From the NCBI GenBank assembly GCA_050575255.1, contig JBNZDD010013632.1:2302480-2366479 (forward strand): a stretch of DNA of 64,000 nt, written 5' to 3'. Positions 3,262 to 62,447 of this stretch are shown piece by piece. How positions within the stretch are numbered: position 1 is the stretch's first letter; every line of letters starts with the position of its first letter. The notes beneath the pieces are model-generated. The model was not told where the DNA came from. It ran no database searches and saw only the letters and a list, made by a program, of their open reading frames with translations. Origin of the DNA: Harriotta raleighana (lineage: Eukaryota). The translations under genes were made by a program, and so were the position numbers.

Positions 3262-4565
3262 CTAAAAAGCAGGAAGGTTTTAAACATAATTTTTAACCAG
3301 CAGATTTTGTTTTATTTAAACTGAGAAATCCTTGTGCATCTGAAATACAATATGTTGATTTGGTAAAAAGAGTGAGCCCTGGCTTGTGTGGCAGCTTATC
3401 ATGTGATCACTAATGAGCAAAAGGATTTTCTTCCAACAGTTCAGTAACTCTATTAACCTCTGATCCCATCAAATCCACAACGTGCATAATGTTCCATGGC
3501 TAATTTTTACACACATCAGAATGTGTGTGACTATAATTAAAATGTGTTCATTATACATAATGAAAAGCTATAATACAATCTGGAAATGAGTCACAGACAT
3601 GTGCAAAATCAATTCATTCATTCATTTGTTATTATGTTCACAATGTGTGGTTTCTGGTGTGACTGTACTTGGAATAATGAGACGAGGTTATGTTTGTAAA
3701 ATAAATTTGAGATTCCCCTGTTTTGTGCTGACCAGAAATGCATAGCAAGCTCTGAATTAGCAGTTTATTTTTTGTTTGCAGCAGATTCCTCACTTGGCAG
3801 ACTTCTTGTGTAAATGCGACTAAATGCTTTAAGTCACAAAGGATGTGAGGCAAGAGTGGCAATCATCATTGAACTGTTGCTTCCACGGTTTTGTGTGGCA
3901 CTTAGGTCACAGAGCATATTAATAAAGGTTTTTGTTTAAGGATGACTTCTCATCTTCTGCTGTAAATGATTTTAAAGTTATAATGTTTTGCTGAGTGTTA
4001 TTTAATTGAAAGACAAAGGCAACGTTTATTTGCATCTGGCACAGTAATCAGGGGAACAAATTGGCACATTATATTTCTTCACTTCTGCTGTTTGCATAGG
4101 TTCCTCCATCCATAGCTAAGCAATCAATCATGATACAAACCCCCTATGTAACAGTGTGCCCCACTTTACCCTGTAGCAAAAGAAAATCAATCAGCTTAAA
4201 TTTGTATTGGGAAATGAACTTCAAAAGCCAAGTATCATGGTTCAGTGAAGATTAAAACCTTAGCCCGCTAAATAAACAGTCATTCTATATGGCTAACATT
4301 TTTCAGGTTATAATTGAGAACTTTGGGGGGTTTTTCCGACCCAATATTTGCATTCACAATGTCTGTATTGCAAAGGGTAGAAACTTTAATCCTTCAAAAT
4401 GTATGTGGAAATTGTATATTTTCTTCCCCTCTCTTTTAGAGCAATTGTTTAATTCATGTTTTAGTTTCAAACCAAACAGCCTTTTCTCAGACTGAGCCAA
4501 CTGATGAAGTGATTGCTTGCACTACAAGCTTGGCCACTTAACTAAGTATAAAACAGTAGTCATAC

Positions 4566-4709
4566 CATTGAGGACCCTGAGATTTTCTGAGGATGTTGCT
4601 TGTTGTAAAGCTTGCTCCACTTGTTCCCGTCGCTTTGACTCAAACTCCAGTGCTTCTTGCAATTTCCTCTTTGCCTTTTTCTCTTTCTTCAGTCGCTTTT
4701 GAATTGTTG
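4566..4709 (-). CDS. DACH2: DACH2 exon, 144 nt: (A)TIQKRLKKEKKAKRKLQEALEFESKRREQVEQALQQATSSENLRVLN(D)
   Basis: Acceptor tatttcag|CA, donor G|gtatga. Contains the basic motif QKRLKKEKKAKRKLQEALE. Confidence 0.97.
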
Positions 4710-5190
4710 CTGAAATAGCCATGGAGAGGTTTAAAGCCGTTAGGTTGACATGATTCACTGATTAAAATAGATACAAACTATAAAAGACTTAAGATTCTAC
4801 CTGATTCGTTGATTATCTTCAGTATTTTCTTTTTATAAAATTAGATAGATATTATCTCAAACACAATCAATAACTTGTTTTGGGAAAGGATAGGATTTTG
4901 TGCTGAAGATTTATTTTGATTTATGCCTTCAAATTGCAAGCAACTCTTAAAGGTTAAAATCAGGTGGTTAGGTATTTGCCAGTAATGCTTCTGGTGTGCA
5001 CCAAATCCAAGCACACAACCGTAGTCACAAATATTGTGATGTGGTCATACAGCTGAGTGTAAAGCAGCTTCTCTCCCAAGAAAATGATATGGAGCAATAT
5101 CTGTGCTGCAATTTACAGAATAATATTCAGTGTATGCGTCATCTCATCAATAGCACTTCCATAAACTGTGCACATAACAAGCTTTTGGTG

Positions 5191-6298
5191 GCGGAGGAGG
5201 GTTAGGCGCTGCCACCGCCGCTACCGAAACCGCTGCCGCGACCAGAACCTCTACAACTACCGAGGACCCGGGCACAGGAGGCAGATCTACACCCCGTGCG
5301 TCTGCGTCTGCGGGGAGCTAGCACGGGTACATCCGAGCACGGCGTCGTCTTCGGTGGACACGGACGTGGGGAGCTCGCTCATCGGCGACATGTTCGAGCG
5401 GCTCCCGCCTGGAAGGCCTTTTGCCTGATCCGGTGCTGCAGGCGGCGGACCAGCTCGTCGCGGGAGATCCCGGCGGCGGTCAAGCTGCTGCCGCCGAGCA
5501 AACTGGCCAGACACACCGTGTCCGAGGTACCAGAGCCGTCACCGAATCACCTGGTCACCAGCTGAGGAGCCACTCGTTTTTTTTTACCACACTGGGCCTA
5601 GTTCCCGCCTTTTCGAATATCGTCCAGGCGGGCAGCGAGGACAGTGAGCAATTGCTGGACTGTTGTTAATGGTTGCTGTTGTTGCTTTTGCTGCTGTTAT
5701 TGTTGCTTTTTTGTTTGTTTATTGTTGTTGATATTGTTGTTTGTTGTTGTTAATACCCCCACCCCCTAACCTTTCCCCCTCCTTTGTCCCCCTCCTTTTT
5801 CTTCTTCTTCTTCCCTCCCTCCCTTTCCCTCCCTCTTCCCTCTTACTTCCATCTGATTTTCTCCCAGATATTGTCCCCCTCTTCCCTCTTACCCCTCTCT
5901 TCCCTCTTATCCCCCCTTCTCTCCATTTCTCCCTGATTTTGCCCTCTACCCACCTTTCCCTCCCTCTTCTCCCTTGCTCCCTCCTTTTCTCTGATTTGCC
6001 CCTTGCCTTCTTTTCTCCCCCTTTTCCTCCCTGATTTTACCCCATCGCCTTTCACCACCGTCTCCCCCCTTACCCTTTTTTTCCCCTTTCTCCCCTGGCC
6101 CCAATTCCACAACTGTTTGTGGGACACTGCTGTGTGCAATTTGGCTGCCGCATTTCGCCCACAAATATACAGTTGTTTTTTCCTGTACTTCTTCCCCCTG
6201 CTCCCTACTTGCTCCCTACTTGACTGTACAGAGCCTTGGGGCGTCCTCCCGACATGAAAGGCTCTATATAAATGTAATCTTGATTGATTGATTGATTT
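5191..6298 (+). mobile_element. Composite non-autonomous retroposon: GC/CpG-rich head, (TTG)-like microsatellite, C/T tract, SINE-derived body, L2-type tail, (TGAT)n
   Basis: Flanked by the 8-bp direct repeat TTTTGGTG (5183-5190 and 6299-6306). 6103-6172 matches the SINE body at 23378-23447. 6221-6278 matches L2 3' ends at 21930-21986 and 54420-54477. Confidence 0.75.
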
Positions 6299-6398
6299 TT
6301 TTGGTGAAGTAAGAATAGAAAAAGTCATTTAGAATAATTGAAAATGGGTTATAGTCCAAAGATTTTTAGGAATATTGAAAAAAAATTCAGATTAATGA

Positions 6399-6625
6399 AA
6401 CAAAAGCAGAAATCGCTGGTCAGGCAGCATCTATGGAGAAAGCAAAGTGAGTCAACATTTTGGGTCCATGACCATTCATCAGAACTGTTCTGACGAAGGG
6501 TCGCAGACCCGAAACATTGACTCACTTTTCTTTTCTCCATAGATGTTACCTGACCTGCTGACTGTTCCCAGCAATTTCTGGGTTTTTTCAGATTTCTAGC
6601 ATTTGCAGTATTTTGCGTTTTTGTT
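6399..6625. mobile_element. Penelope-like-derived palindromic element with two degenerate hammerhead ribozyme cores
   Basis: Imperfect inverted repeat centred on 6486 (arms about 6418-6485 and 6487-6555). Plus strand: CTGACGA-A-GGGTC-gca-GACCC-GAAA (6490-6514). Mirror core on minus strand: CTGATGA-A-tGGTC-atg-GACCc-AAAA. Confidence 0.75.
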
Positions 6626-19135: not shown

Positions 19136-21674
19136 TTGTCATAGAGTGCATGTGTTTGATAAAACTTATGATAATTGCTGGCTGAACCACGGTGTCCATG
19201 GTTGAGCTCTCGTGTGCACTTTGCAAGGCAGGACAGCAGTCTCCTAGAATTTACCCCTGCATGACCATCCATTCTCCAGCCTGGCGGGGAACTGCAAAAA
19301 GTTCACTCAACTGAGGCAAGTGACAGGCAGCGTGTTAAACTGCTTTTTGCCATAAACAATGGGATATCTGGCAAAGCCTTGATCTTCCGAGCTTGTCTAC
19401 ATCGCAAGTCTTTTTAGTTATAAATTATACAGGAACAATATAGTGTTCCAGGAAAGATATTAAAGCCAGGCAGAAACACGGTTAAATGTCATCTGTTAAA
19501 GTTTAGGTGATCTGGTAAATTTAGTGCCAGATTCAGAAGCTCAGACGCAAAATTTATGAGCCTGGAATGCATAATCCCAATTTTTCCGTTGATATTTTGC
19601 AAACACTTATGAATTGATCTACAGTTGGAGAAACAGATGGTCAGGTATGGAGTACAAAGAATTATTTCACATATTGTTCCACTAACCCTTCCAATTTCTC
19701 CAAATAAGTTTTCCGTGATGGTATCCCTCTTTCCCTGTGTATAAATTACAGTACAAATCAAATTCTTGAATTACTGCAGTCATCCATACTTCAAAATCTT
19801 ATTATTTTTTCTGTAAGTATTAATTAACACGGCAAAAGTACAATCTTAGAAGCATGAACTGTGAGCTTTGGAGAGGGTAAATGTGTTGTTTGGATTTGAG
19901 TCGGTAACATGGTAACACTGGGATAGTGGGTTATTAGATTTCCAGTTATCAATTTCAAAGCCGTAAACCATTCACCTTTTCACACTGCAAAGAATGTTCT
20001 GCTTGTTCCACCCCACCTCCCGCTTCAAATTTCCTAAGAATTAAGTGAACCTTATACATAATGTAAGTGACATTTTTGATGGTACTGTATATCAGTAACA
20101 TATTTTACATTTCTTAAATATTGCAATCCATCAAACTGATCTAAAAATCTTTGCTTATTCATGGTAACATCACCTACTAATATTTGTGATGGTCAGAATA
20201 TGGTCTTGGTTCTGGGCAGTATGTTTTGTCTGTTCTGTGTATCATTCATAAGCAAAAGTACAACAAAAAAAAATAACAGTACTAAAAGTGCAATTAAAAG
20301 TTTGTATGTTGTGAAATATTTGATGCCTGTTGCATCCAGATGGAAAGTTAAAGACTGATTATAAGATCACTTTTAAATCTGTTTATAAAACCAGATTTTA
20401 AATAATGCGTTTTCTTTTAGGAAACTACCTTCAATAGAGTAAATGTTCTACTGTAATCAGATTAAAATCATGGCAGAGGTGTCTTTGATTTATTTTTGGA
20501 ACTACACTAACCCGTTTAAGAATATAAAGAATGGGTAAATCTTTAATGGCGGAAGCCTTTAAANGAGTAAATGTTCTACTGTAATCAGATTCAAATCATG
20601 GCAGAGGTGTCTTTGATTTATTTTTGGAACTACACTAACCTGTTTAAGAATATAAAGAATGGGTAAATCTTTAATGGCGGAAGCCTTTAAAAGTAAAAGC
20701 CTTTACTTCGAATAGAGTATAAGTAAACGTGAAACCAAATTTTGAATGTTCTTGCAACAAATCCATTAAAATTGCTTGGCACATTGTTTGCTTATCCAAA
20801 TTGAAATATACAGGTATGTATTTGAAAATGGTGTGATCTGAGTATTGGGTGTGTGACAGAACTCAGGTATGCCTGTGACTTAACATGGTGCGGTAAGGTG
20901 CACTGTTGTTAACTGAAGTCACTGAAGCACTGTTACTGTTATAGGAAAACCTGACCTGGTTGGAGTGATGCTGAATTGACTATTAGCTATAAGGTAGATG
21001 GATGGAATGACTGTGCCAGCTTGCGCACTGCATAGAAATAACAACCAACGGTGCACTGTAGATTGCCAGTGTGTTCAAGGGAAAATGAGAGTAATACAGT
21101 ACTAGTTGTCAAGTAATACAGTACCAGCAGTGACATCAGCCATCATTGCAGCTAAATTAAATACAGATGGTGAAATCTGCACTAAACGGGTCAATGGAAC
21201 ATTTAAGAAAGACGGAGCACATATTTGGACCAAATCCAGGCAATTTTCGTGGTTTCTGTTATTTTTAAAATTAGGTAAACCTAATTGATTGTGGTTGCCA
21301 TAATGATACACAAGTGTTAAAGGTGTTTGGTGAGCAATACAGTATTTTCCCTCCCACTGTAAACATGCTAGGATTGAGGAAGGGCTGCTGCGCTCAATCA
21401 CATATTAATGCGGGAAAGTTTTTAATATTTACTAGGGAACGACTTGCTTGGTGACTGCCTGATTGAATAATTCAACAAAAACAACTGGACTAATAAATGC
21501 TGACTGACTCAAAGCAGATTATTTAATAGAGAGGATTCGGAAGATCATAGGCAATTGCTGTAAAGCACAAATGAGAAAAGAATTACCAAAGCTTTTGGGG
21601 ATAGCCTTGCAAAGTCTCCAATCCATGACTACTCTTATTGATTGTGCTTACAAGAAGTCACTGTGCAGCATCAC

Positions 21675-22130
21675 TGATCTGTGCTGATTTAGCTGATTCC
21701 CTATGAAATTGCCTACCCCGTCCATTCAGCGGGCTCTGGTCTGCTCCATGTCCCCACCCGATCCGCCCTACCATCAGTGGACTGGCTTTCAGCCTCTCTG
21801 CCCCCACACTCCCTTCACTTTGCTTCCTCCCTTGACTCCTTCAAGGCTGGTCTCAAGACCCTCCTCTTCGATTCTGCCTTCTGCTGCTCTCCCAACTATC
21901 TCCCTCCCCATTGCTCGGGTCCCGACCTCACTGTTCAGCGCCTTGGGATGTTCTCCCAATGTGAAAGGCACTCTATAAATGTAATTTTGTTGTTGTTGAT
22001 TTCAGCCAGAGCAATGGCTGGGATGCTACAAGTGGCCTGGTGAGATCTTGGGCTCGGGAGGAGAAAAACCATTGTTGCCAATTCTGATTCTTGAACGCTA
22101 TCTAGTGGCAGACTTTCCCCTCCACTTATC
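21675..22130 (+). mobile_element. Ancient SINE copy interrupted by an L2 3' fragment (21699-21996)
   Basis: Host sequence tctgtgctgatttagctgatt|...|tcagccagagc. Insert has L2-type ctcaagaccctcctcttcga and ends aggcactctataaatgtaatt(ttg)n. Confidence 0.75.
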
Positions 22131-22694
22131 CAATGTTTGAACCCATCTTTGATGCCCAGCAGAGCCAAAAGACCTGCCGACTCTATCTTTTATGACTTAT
22201 AACATAAACTCCAGTGAGTGGCCGGTGCTCGTTAAGCTATCAATAAAAAGGAAAAGGAGAGGACGGTTGACAAGAAAGGGAAAGAAAAAGTTGCTGTTAA
22301 TGATTTTGCACTTTAAAAACTGACTTATTCTCTGCAATGCTGAGGGTGCTTCATTCACATTTGTGTCCAGATTTCACCATTTGTTTGAATTTCAGCAACA
22401 TTCTTAATTAGCAGATAACCTAATTCATTCAGATCTGTTAACAAAACATGCCTGCTTGTGCTCACGTGGCGTTGATAAATTGTGGAAACTATTAGCTTGA
22501 AAGTAACTGTCAGGTTTTATTTGTGCTGGACATTAGTCACTACATTTTCTGGCTTCAGTATACCTCGTGCATCGAACAAATTCTAGAATGACTCACTATC
22601 TCTCCATTTCATTTTTTCACCCACCCCCACTGTTGTGGATGTGAACCAACCGAAACCTCAATGTTTGAATAGATTAGAATAAGGAAGGTATACA

Positions 22695-22980
22695 GTTAAC
22701 CCTTGTCGAAGGTGACTTTATCGATTGCAAATTCAAGTATACGCGACAAAACGAAAGCATCACGTTTTTGTGGCAGAACGCGTAAAACTTGTGTATACAC
22801 GTCAGCTGGCCCCCGCGCGCATGCACACGTGTGAGTTCGCCAACAGCCGCCGACTAAATCCAATGATTCCTCAGCTGGCTGGTCCCACGCACATGCGCAC
22901 TGTTGACGAGGCCGTCAGATCCCGACTAAAGCCTTGGCTGGCTGGCCCTGTGCGCAATGCATTCTTGGGTAAGGTTTAGA
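22695..22980. mobile_element. CpG-rich small element, possibly a degenerate piggyBac-type MITE
   Basis: TTAA-CCCTT left end, AAGGT-TTAG right end (imperfect); internal subrepeats gctggc..gcgcatgc and cgactaaa; sharp CpG enrichment against the flanks. Confidence 0.4.
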
Positions 22981-23220
22981 TAACTGTTCAGCCTGATGTA
23001 TTGCATGATAAACAGAAGAGACAGAGCGAGAGACATTCTCCTACAGAGCCCGAGCAGCTCGCCAATCTCCGATGATGGTACCTGTTCCCCCCACTGATGC
23101 AATTTTATTGAATCCCATTCACCTTTTTTCTTCTTGTGGCTTTTAATATTAATTTCCCTACAGTATTTATCCAATTTCTATTTTAAATGCTGTCATAGTC
23201 TTAGATAGCATTAGTAGATT

Positions 23221-35756: not shown

Positions 35757-36140
35757 CAACAACAACAAAATTACATTTGTATGGTGCCCTTCATGTCGGG
35801 AGAACGTCCCAAAGTCCTGGACAGTCAGTATCTCGGTCCCTAGCTGAGGTCGGGATCGTGGAGGGAAGGGGGGTTAGTTACCAATGGCACAGTCGAAGAG
35901 GAGGGTCATGAGGCAGATGTGAAGGAGGCTAGGGAGGGGGTGAGGTGGAGGGATTGCGTGCGTGATGGAATTCCAAAGGTTGGGGACAGAGTGACTGAAG
36001 GCTCACCTGCCGATGGTGGGACGGGTCGGTCAGAGTACCTGGAGCAGACAGGAACCTGCTGAGTGGAGGGAGTGGGCAGATTGCTAGGGGGTCACAGAGG
36101 TAGAGTGGGGCAAAGCCATGGAGGGCTTTAAAGGTGTAAT
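35757..36140 (-). mobile_element. L2 LINE 3' fragment
   Basis: Begins (caa)n-aattacatttgtatggtgcccttcatgtcgggag, the reverse complement of the L2 tail at 21940-21996; purine-rich body. Confidence 0.85.
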
Positions 36141-51781: not shown

Positions 51782-52695
51782 CGCTTCACAGAATATATTG
51801 TAAAGTGAGTTGACTGTATATTTGTGAACGAAACACAGCAGCCAATTGCACACAGCAGTGTCCCCCAAACAGTCGTGGATTGAAATGACCAATTCATTAT
51901 TGTTTTTTAATGAGGGATTACTACAGTAAAAGCCCGTTTTTCCGTGACTCAATGAACCGGAAAACCCATTGAACCAGAACCTCAAAAAAAAGTCCTGATT
52001 CGATAAACCAGAAGTTATCCGGCAGAATAGTGATGACACATTTAATGAATTGATTGTTGCACACGAGCACTAATACAGGTATTTGGGCTGGCTGATAGTC
52101 GAGTCTAAACTCGCTCCTACTCCTTTTAAAAGTCGCGATACTAGTGTTTTTTAAAAAGTTGCCATTTGGTTTTCTCCATAGGGTCGGCCTTTGCGAAGTT
52201 AAGTATAAATAATAAAGTACTAATACAATATTCTGTTATTGTAGTATCTGTTATTAGTGTATTTAGTCTATTATTTATATAGTATTGTTTAACATTTACA
52301 ATAAAGTAGCCATACAATATTCTGTTATTACAGTATCTGTTATTACTGTATTTACTCTATTACAGTATTTATATGGTATAGTGCACAACATTTACAATAA
52401 TATACCCATGCAATATTGTTATAATCTGTTATTATTTAGTCTATTATTAATATGGTATGTGTTAAAATAATTTTTAATTACTTTTTTTTTTAAATTGTTA
52501 AAAAAAAGTTCAACCGGAAAACCGCTTGATCGCCACTGGCCAGGTCCCGTGGGGACTGGATAAACTGACTTTTACTGTATTAGGTGTGTGAAGAAAGAGA
52601 ACTTGCCCACGATTTCATCCTGCCTGGAATTGAACCCAGGTTTCTCGCTCATAAGGCAAGTGTTCTAACAGTACTGAGCTACAGTACTCCACAAT
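51782..52695 (-). mobile_element. tRNA-derived SINE split by a MITE insertion (SINE parts 51782-51923 and 52578-52695)
   Basis: Removing the MITE restores gagggattacta-ttaggtgtgtg, colinear with 10385-10410. Confidence 0.88.
51924..52577. mobile_element. Tc1/mariner (pogo/Tigger-like) MITE with TA target duplication
   Basis: TA|CAGTAAAAGcccgtttttcc ... ggataaactgaCTTTTACTG|TA; AT-rich internal subrepeats at 52200-52470. Confidence 0.88.
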
Positions 52696-54249: not shown

Positions 54250-54897
54250 TTGAGTTGTGTCTTCCTTAGACTTCACTAGCTTGCCCCCTCCCTTGCCTCC
54301 TTCAATACCCATCTCAAGACCCTCGTCTTCGACCGTGCCTTTGGTCACCCTCCTACCTTTACCCTCTCCTCATTGTCCTCCACTCCTCATGATCCCAACC
54401 ACCAGCTCGGATGCGGATCCCTAACTATCCAACGCCTTGGGGTATCCTCCTGACGTGAAAGGCTCTCTACAAATGTACAGTAAAAGCTTGGTTATCCAGC
54501 ACCCAACCAACTGGAACAATCAACCAATCAGTATCTCCCAATACAATTCACCATTCCAGCAACGTAGCCATCCTGGACACTCGTGGTATGCTCACTTTCC
54601 GCATGCGTGTGCATGCGTGTGTTGGTGCACTTATTAAACTTACCGAACGCTGGAATTTTTATTTTACCAATCATTTTACCGAGTGTGCTGCAATGCTTTA
54701 TTGGTAAGTATCCATATAATAGTCTGTTATTATTTAGTCTATTATTAATATGGTATGTTTTAAAATAAGTTAATTTTTTGTGTAGGATTTTCGTCAAACT
54801 TGCCGCTCAAATATCCGGCATATTTAATTAACCGGCACCGGTCAGGTCCCGAGGGTGCTGGATAACCTAAGCTTTTAATGTACTTTGTTGTTATTGA
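54250..54897 (+). mobile_element. L2 3' fragment whose tail is split by a MITE
   Basis: ctcaagaccctcgtcttcgacc..gtgaaaggctctctacaaatgta|MITE|ctttgttgttattg. Confidence 0.8.
54478..54880. mobile_element. Tc1/mariner MITE, same family as 51924-52577
   Basis: TA|cagtaaaagcttggttatccagcaccc ... gggtgctggataacctaagcttttaatg|TA (TIR about 27 bp). Shares tctgttattatttagtctattattaatatggtatgt with the other copy. Confidence 0.9.
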
Positions 54898-62289: not shown

Positions 62290-62447
62290 TAAGACCCTCC
62301 TCTTTGACTGTATCTTCAGCCAAGCTATCATCCCTGCACTTCACTGCTCCTGATCACAACCCCTGCTCGAGTCCAAATCACTGACTGTCCAGATCCTTAC
62401 GACGTCCTCCCATCATAAAAAGAGCTATTCAAATGTAATTTGTTGCT
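62290..62447 (+). mobile_element. L2 3' fragment
   Basis: aagaccctcctctttgactg..gacgtcctccc..gagctattcaaatgtaatttgttg. Confidence 0.75.

Follow-up and report, generated by a model that had tools for sequence, protein, structure and literature searches.

SVA and LAVA elements are built from a hexamer repeat, an Alu-like part, a GC-rich VNTR and a SINE-R part. In two such elements, SVA_F1 (MAST2 exon 1) and chimpanzee pt_SVA_D6 (STK40 exon 1), GC-rich host-gene sequence took the place of the 5' part, possibly through splicing, and the new form was then amplified; the GC-rich exon of SVA_F1 is said to act as a promoter (PMC6139936). LINEs of the L2 type, for their part, recognise the 3' ends of their templates stringently, as reviewed in PMC3747384. 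Here we analysed a 64,000-nt stretch of DNA from Harriotta raleighana (contig JBNZDD010013632.1), hereafter the window, in which an insert at 5183..6306 had been likened to an SVA in a preliminary description. The analogy is apt in that the element is composite and non-autonomous, though it is not an SVA. We consider it probable that the insert is a copy, clipped at its 5' end, of a composite retroposon that combines broken coding sequence of H2B and RUNDC1 with simple repeats, part of a SINE and the tail of an L2. L2 likely copied this retroposon, whose source elements likely fixed A-to-I edits in rounds. Its parts and their order, the copy number, the common tail, the pattern of 5' truncation, the ladder of tiers and the excess of A>G on one strand are observed directly in the genome.

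Modules and copies of the element

All modules lie on the + strand, in the order described earlier. The 8-bp direct repeat TTTTGGTG is present at both ends with 1108 bp in between, the left copy (5183..5190) being a possible TSD in which GGTG is perhaps element sequence, and the right copy occupying 6299..6306. The GC- and CpG-rich head (5191-5660) has 64.5% GC and a CpG o/e of 1.0 vs 0.32 for the whole window. It opens with a 5' tip (5191..5215) that, by comparison with family copies, is ~10 nt short, and continues with a low-complexity expansion (5216..5278), Arg-rich in the H2B frame and likely derived from the N-terminal tail of an H2B variant (compared by eye with locus L179, without a clean alignment). 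A decayed coding sequence for the histone H2B fold follows (5279..5563, from H2B matches), then a RUNDC1 5' coding remnant (5564..5660), internally deleted, corresponding to about residues 28-47 and 92-104 of C. milii RUNDC1 and recognisable only via older copies. The T9 run at 5577-5585 is indeed present, and is private to the window copy, where it originated by a 6-nt deletion. Downstream, the (TTG)n tract, the C/T tract and the (TTGA)4.5 tail were all found as described: a degenerate (TTG)n (5661..5754) with the repeat unit of local L2 tails, possibly an earlier tail; a C/T-rich tract (5755..6097) whose length varies between copies; and, after a SINE piece, a family-specific spacer with a private 11-bp tandem duplication (6174..6220), the L2 3' tail with its predicted stem-loop fold (6221..6282) and the (TTGA/GATT)n terminal repeat (6280..6298). 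The SINE piece (6098..6173) is the 3' body piece of the local tRNA-headed SINE, assigned by alignment to the SINE consensus; ~70 nt of it are common to six other SINE copies of the window, five of which align to the family consensus at 86-91% and one at 74%. We take this SINE to be putatively CmiSINE/SacSINE1-CM-like, going by the description in PMC5499810.

Other features of the window were recorded alongside. The element is antisense to a stop-free frame with a charged coiled-coil stretch at 4522-4761 (-), presumably a DACH exon, a label that a Pfam search of this exon did not confirm. A ~190-bp MITE-like palindrome at 6399-6588, with nested inverted repeats and arms 81-84% complementary, gave only sub-threshold miRNA-type Rfam matches. 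The window also holds a 128-bp tandem duplication at 95% (20428-20697), a second CpG-rich patch (22601-23200) and an ARAGORN tRNA-Ile(TAT) at 52616-52687 (-), possibly a SINE head.

A search of the 1.1-Gb genome with the head, the check proposed in the preliminary description, returned 887 candidates, and 40 of the 40 scored were matches at 76-85% (self excluded); with an in-frame copy as the protein query there were 938 candidates, and all 150 scored were matches. The insert is one member of a multi-copy chimeric non-autonomous family, as had been proposed, and module order, 5' start and L2-derived tail recur at other loci. The order is the same in 53 distinct loci, 36 of which carry a (GATT)n tail, and among 30 loci picked by a 27-nt head pattern the tail matched in 22, a count that includes one (GTT)n tail, one tandem pair (two loci) and the window copy itself. 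A 36-nt tail pattern had 842 exact matches genome-wide (reversed control, 0); among the first 30 of these loci, 21 run into family sequence to variable depth, 9 end inside the tail and 1 reaches H2B. The tail loci are thus mostly 5'-truncated and 3'-anchored, as LINE mobilisation predicts. By rough scaling, 842/(5/38) and 98/(16/53), the genome would hold several thousand copies with the tail and several hundred with the head. Close pairs (L011/L012, L085/L088 and L005/L013) have element sequence in common and unlike flanks, the tree of the youngest tier is star-like, and diagnostic indels are mosaic. A possible 5' transduction in L006/L070 was rejected: the flanks are 100% identical, which indicates a duplication, and L070 was left out of the divergence counts, leaving 52 copies.

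The common start is AA(G/A)ATGGCGG, found in 36/53 copies with unrelated sequence upstream (search allowing two mismatches), and it resembles the TISU/YY1 element AAGATGG described in PMC2518114. The window copy, which had been called full-length, lacks the AAGATGG/AAAATGG motif and begins ~10 nt downstream of it, without the 5' tip of those copies. Because full copies begin at a YY1/TISU-like motif, an internal Pol II promoter is plausible for the family; with the motif lost from the window copy, the suggested antisense firing against the host gene becomes less likely there.

The L2-type 3' end was borne out, in that the final ~61 nt of the element match an RT-encoding L2 at its 3' end with 80-92% identity. 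Sixteen L2-like ORF2 ends, from the window and other loci, bear the ~61-nt tail at this identity and are mostly (GTT)n-terminated, and L130 carries a 492-aa RT ORF with RVT_1. L2 and the oldest tier of the family terminate in (GTT)n, unlike the window copy with its (TTGA/GATT)n. We assume the L2 clade label from familiar ORF2 C-terminal motifs and PMC5499810 rather than from a tree. The element was likely copied in trans by the L2 reverse transcriptase, to judge from the shared tail. Within the window, a partner L2 3' end with the common tail and (GTT)n lies at ~21800-21995 (+), and weaker tail matches lie near 35766-35826, 54424-54477 and 62383-62441. At L091/L099, L2 ORF2-like sequence runs straight into the final 37 nt of the family tail. 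An old-tier copy, L164 (G000:C13676:~110300-111850), has a second internal 5' tip and a tRNA-SINE (ATT)n tail replacing the L2 tail, which suggests a tail exchange.

Two expectations concerning age did not hold. The CpGs had been thought undecayed, and in the window copy 11.4% of CpG sites and 7.5% of the remaining sites depart from the consensus; the supposedly young family is middle-aged, the mean distance of its copies to the consensus being 6.5% at non-CpG and 18% at CpG sites. At 1.0-1.1e-3 per site per Myr (PMC5499810) the family would be roughly 60 Myr old, a loose date, and the alternative rate given there is six times slower. The 8-bp repeat is weak as evidence of a TSD, because the left GGTG also fits the 5' sequence of the element and family TSDs are short: in 38 rows, which include two with mis-set 3' ends (L080 and L083), TSDs of at least 6 bp occur in 6 (1.9 expected from mismatched pairs) and TSDs are absent or <5 bp in 25. 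The left flank and head were also compared with other organisms (four sequencing runs). Contigs of two of them match the left flank at a difference of ~6-10%, and the match ends at 5186; one record (X7) has different letters beyond that position, and the two organisms have related sequence mainly from ~5410 on. At the left-flank joint, this suggests an empty site, together with a less-edited relative, in other organisms.

Host coding sequence in the head and the ladder of tiers

The head had been described as an anonymous CpG island with no credible ORF, to be compared with L2 5' UTRs. It is not an L2 5' UTR; it is captured protein-coding sequence, from an H2B variant and RUNDC1, and these two with a short tip account for it. 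Frames +1 and +3 of the window head both match histone H2B and are colinear, +1 corresponding to the first half and +3 to the second, though such single-frame matches are weak (E 0.0003-0.06 for most). Host H2B genes are matched far better by the family consensus (72-73% over ~220 nt, E down to 2e-29), with 71 gapless codons against host H2B and a GC3 of 0.92, and copy L002 exceeds the Pfam Histone cut-off. In the window, the H2B part (5279..5563) carries a subfamily +2 insertion near 5405 and a younger-tier -1 frameshift near 5527. Tree analysis places the elements at 100% with L179, a decayed single-copy H2B variant, and this is the closest candidate source found. The RUNDC1 part of old copies has its best match in C. 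milii RUNDC1 (E 3e-23) with an alignment as query, where a single-sequence query gave no match, and a graded deletion series connects the old RUNDC1 piece to 5564-5660 of the window. The stretch 3' of the H2B stop was considered as a histone stem-loop remnant, which was rejected, the stretch being RUNDC1 coding sequence. Protein relatives of the in-frame copies went no further than ordinary H2B (names checked for 10 of 150), and neither an intact parent H2B variant nor host RUNDC1 exon 1 was found in the gapped assembly. An H2B.K identity for L179 (PMC8857922) was weighed and did not gain support; neither an intron nor a parent was found. Divergence of the copies by codon position is 0.061/0.050/0.054, with 13 stops in 52 copies; the copies evolve neutrally, and therefore we claim no protein function. 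The head gave no Rfam match to a ribozyme or structured RNA and folds no better than shuffles (z -1.2).

Older relatives, found by a Pfam histone search and follow-up retrieval, place the window copy in a series of four tiers, sampled by similarity searches and not at random: a form with RUNDC1 only, an old one with H2B and RUNDC1, an intermediate one and the form seen in the window. The RUNDC1-only form has the 5' part of RUNDC1 and (TTG)n and occurs as a tandem pair on one contig. H2B stays in frame throughout in old-tier copies, and a longer RUNDC1-matching piece follows. The end of L179 (...CCAGCT|GTAAAT) and RUNDC1 (...CCAGAG|GAGGAG) together reproduce the element junction exactly, which fits splicing at CT|GT and AG|GA and also 1-nt microhomology; the acceptor lacks a polypyrimidine tract. 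On these letters, splicing and template switching are about equally probable origins of the joint. The AAAATG tip may derive from RUNDC1's own 5' end or from an edited H2B tail.

Two histone loci deserve mention in their own right. At L179/L235 (G000:C13655:~141350-142420), the decayed single-copy H2B variant has a long Gly-rich tail, and a truncated young-tier family copy lies ~350 nt past it; the arrangement could reflect a chimera formed by template switching or, alternatively, a parent gene that has decayed. A histone cluster on G000:C13217 (L045/L047 and L168-L170) holds a divergent H2B in one intact and one frameshifted copy, three tandem H3 genes and an H2A variant, and no stem-loop was visible within 90 nt 3' of the stop of the divergent H2B.

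The tiers can be arranged into an inferred course of assembly. A RUNDC1 5' fragment would have been joined to a (TTG)n/CT/SINE/L2-tail unit, after which an H2B variant would have been added upstream, either by splicing of a cryptic GT at the H2B stop to a RUNDC1 AG or by a template switch. The RUNDC1 middle would then have been lost, a frameshift would have struck the H2B C-terminal helix, and (GATT)n would have become the new tail. Source RNAs would thereafter have carried ADAR-type edits that were reverse-transcribed and inherited, with Pol II transcription likely starting from the YY1/TISU-like tip and the GC-rich head.

One-strand A>G changes and alternative readings

Within the H2B part, 34 ancestral A and 30 ancestral T sites were compared, and the tiers differ at the former. 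A>G stands at 1-5 of the A sites in old copies, 6-10 in intermediate copies and mostly 11-16 in young copies (exceptions being two young copies with 8 and 9; the window copy has G at 14/34), and T>C stands at 1-5 of the T sites in all tiers (80 rows, some alignments partial). The A>G changes are nested across tiers. From host to consensus, A>G occurred at 15/37 sites vs 2/30 for T>C (p=0.0017), and from the intermediate to the young tier at 12/63 vs 2/67 (p=0.004). A's with a 5' A/T neighbour changed in 6/6 cases vs 9/31 after C/G (p=0.002), and ADAR is known to prefer a 5' U/A neighbour. GC-biased gene conversion was rejected, as it should lift T>C just as much and T>C shows no rise. Given the family, the excess probably reflects ADAR editing, on the pattern of changed letters. 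Read in the H2B frame, the A>G changes are a large part of why the decayed protein looks Arg/Cys-rich.

A>G could instead have accumulated in long-lived source loci of the same L2-driven composite family through transcription-coupled mutation or an error bias of Pol II or the L2 RT. Transcription-linked A>G asymmetry is known, and two results would fit such an origin. No dsRNA substrate was found in the folds: when the un-edited core (213 nt) was folded locally, the A's that were edited later showed no preference for pairing (0.23 vs 0.40). Nor is there an excess of private A>G in individual copies (71/2765, vs 82/3713 for T>C), so that editing, where it is the cause, must have been episodic and confined to source elements. 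Against mutation or polymerase error stand the size of the bias, 6- to 8-fold with a 5' neighbour preference, and its absence from the 3' module, which shows 0 A>G among 29-31 A's between tiers, though this module may be constrained. We regard a non-ADAR origin as unlikely. The star-like tree of the young tier, the gapless H2B alignment over 71 codons and the high GC3 would also be expected if the copies were processed pseudogenes of one fast-evolving host H2B-variant gene with a read-through 3' UTR containing RUNDC1 and repeats. Yet a search with the frameshifted pattern gave 98 matches, and one with the in-frame pattern gave 0 (an in-frame pattern would miss old-tier copies); the close pairs combine a common element with unlike flanks, structure differs by tier, and no protein relative of the in-frame copies other than ordinary H2B was found. 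No single intact parent of the same structure was found in the gapped assembly, and we give the pseudogene reading little credence. The consensus is Arg/Cys-rich in the H2B frame, which recalls a sperm-specific, protamine-like H2B as the origin of the head. This was rejected, and we hold it to be extremely improbable, because old-tier copies and L179 have ordinary Lys/Tyr/Asn residues there, the Arg/Cys/Gly residues stemming largely from A>G changes and repeat expansion.

We therefore return to a composite retroposon with edited source elements. Somewhat more tentatively, we favour a chimaera-specific, L2-driven lineage shaped by serial capture of host mRNAs and an RNA-editing ratchet, with every rung kept from a RUNDC1-only founder to the heavily edited H2B-headed form. 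If so, SVA-style gene capture arose independently in cartilaginous fish, via a LINE with stringent tail recognition; a piece of host mRNA with an L2 tail can spread to hundreds of copies; and RNA editing feeds heritable mutations into a non-LTR retroposon. The nested tiers would let the site preference and timing of editing be tested, and would form a fossil record of it that can be dated. On the practical side, several hundred H2B-like matches in the Harriotta raleighana genome are retroposon copies, not histone genes.

Relation to described elements

In the literature searched, with supplements and TE libraries (Repbase, Dfam) outside its scope, we found no histone- or RUNDC1-headed retroposon and no inherited editing in one. 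The window element is neither a classical SINE nor a plain set of pseudogenes. A classical SINE head (tRNA, 5S or 7SL) was sought, with no Rfam match at E<=1 and no ARAGORN tRNA inside the element. The element carries the tail of an RT-encoding L2, and its copies are 3'-anchored with variable 5' truncation, as in L2-dependent non-autonomous retroposons. By description, it resembles the CmiSINEs and SacSINE1-CM of Callorhinchus milii (partner L2-2_CM; PMC5499810, whose main text has the word "histone" once, in an unrelated context) in its L2-derived 3' tail and local tRNA-SINE 3' body piece. Unlike them as described, it has no tRNA head or CORE, is ~1.07 kb long and has an mRNA-derived head. 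An unconventional head on a LINE-dependent unit is also described for SINEs whose heads are not of Pol III type (SINEU, SINE28 and GC-rich heads of unclear origin) and for the ORF1-bearing HAL1/HeT-A (PMC5786205); here, by contrast, the head consists of two broken host protein genes, neither structural RNA nor LINE ORF1.

With its H2B, RUNDC1, (TTG)n, CT, SINE piece, L2 tail and (GATT)n, the family is not SVA/LAVA. It lacks the hexamer, Alu-like, VNTR and SINE-R parts of SVA_F1, and it ends in an L2 tail and a microsatellite where SVA has L1 and poly(A). Its capture takes in most of a histone coding region together with RUNDC1, and it has hundreds of head-bearing copies and a cumulative A>G ladder. 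Like SVA_F1, it has captured GC-rich host-gene sequence at its 5' end and amplified it along with the rest of the element.
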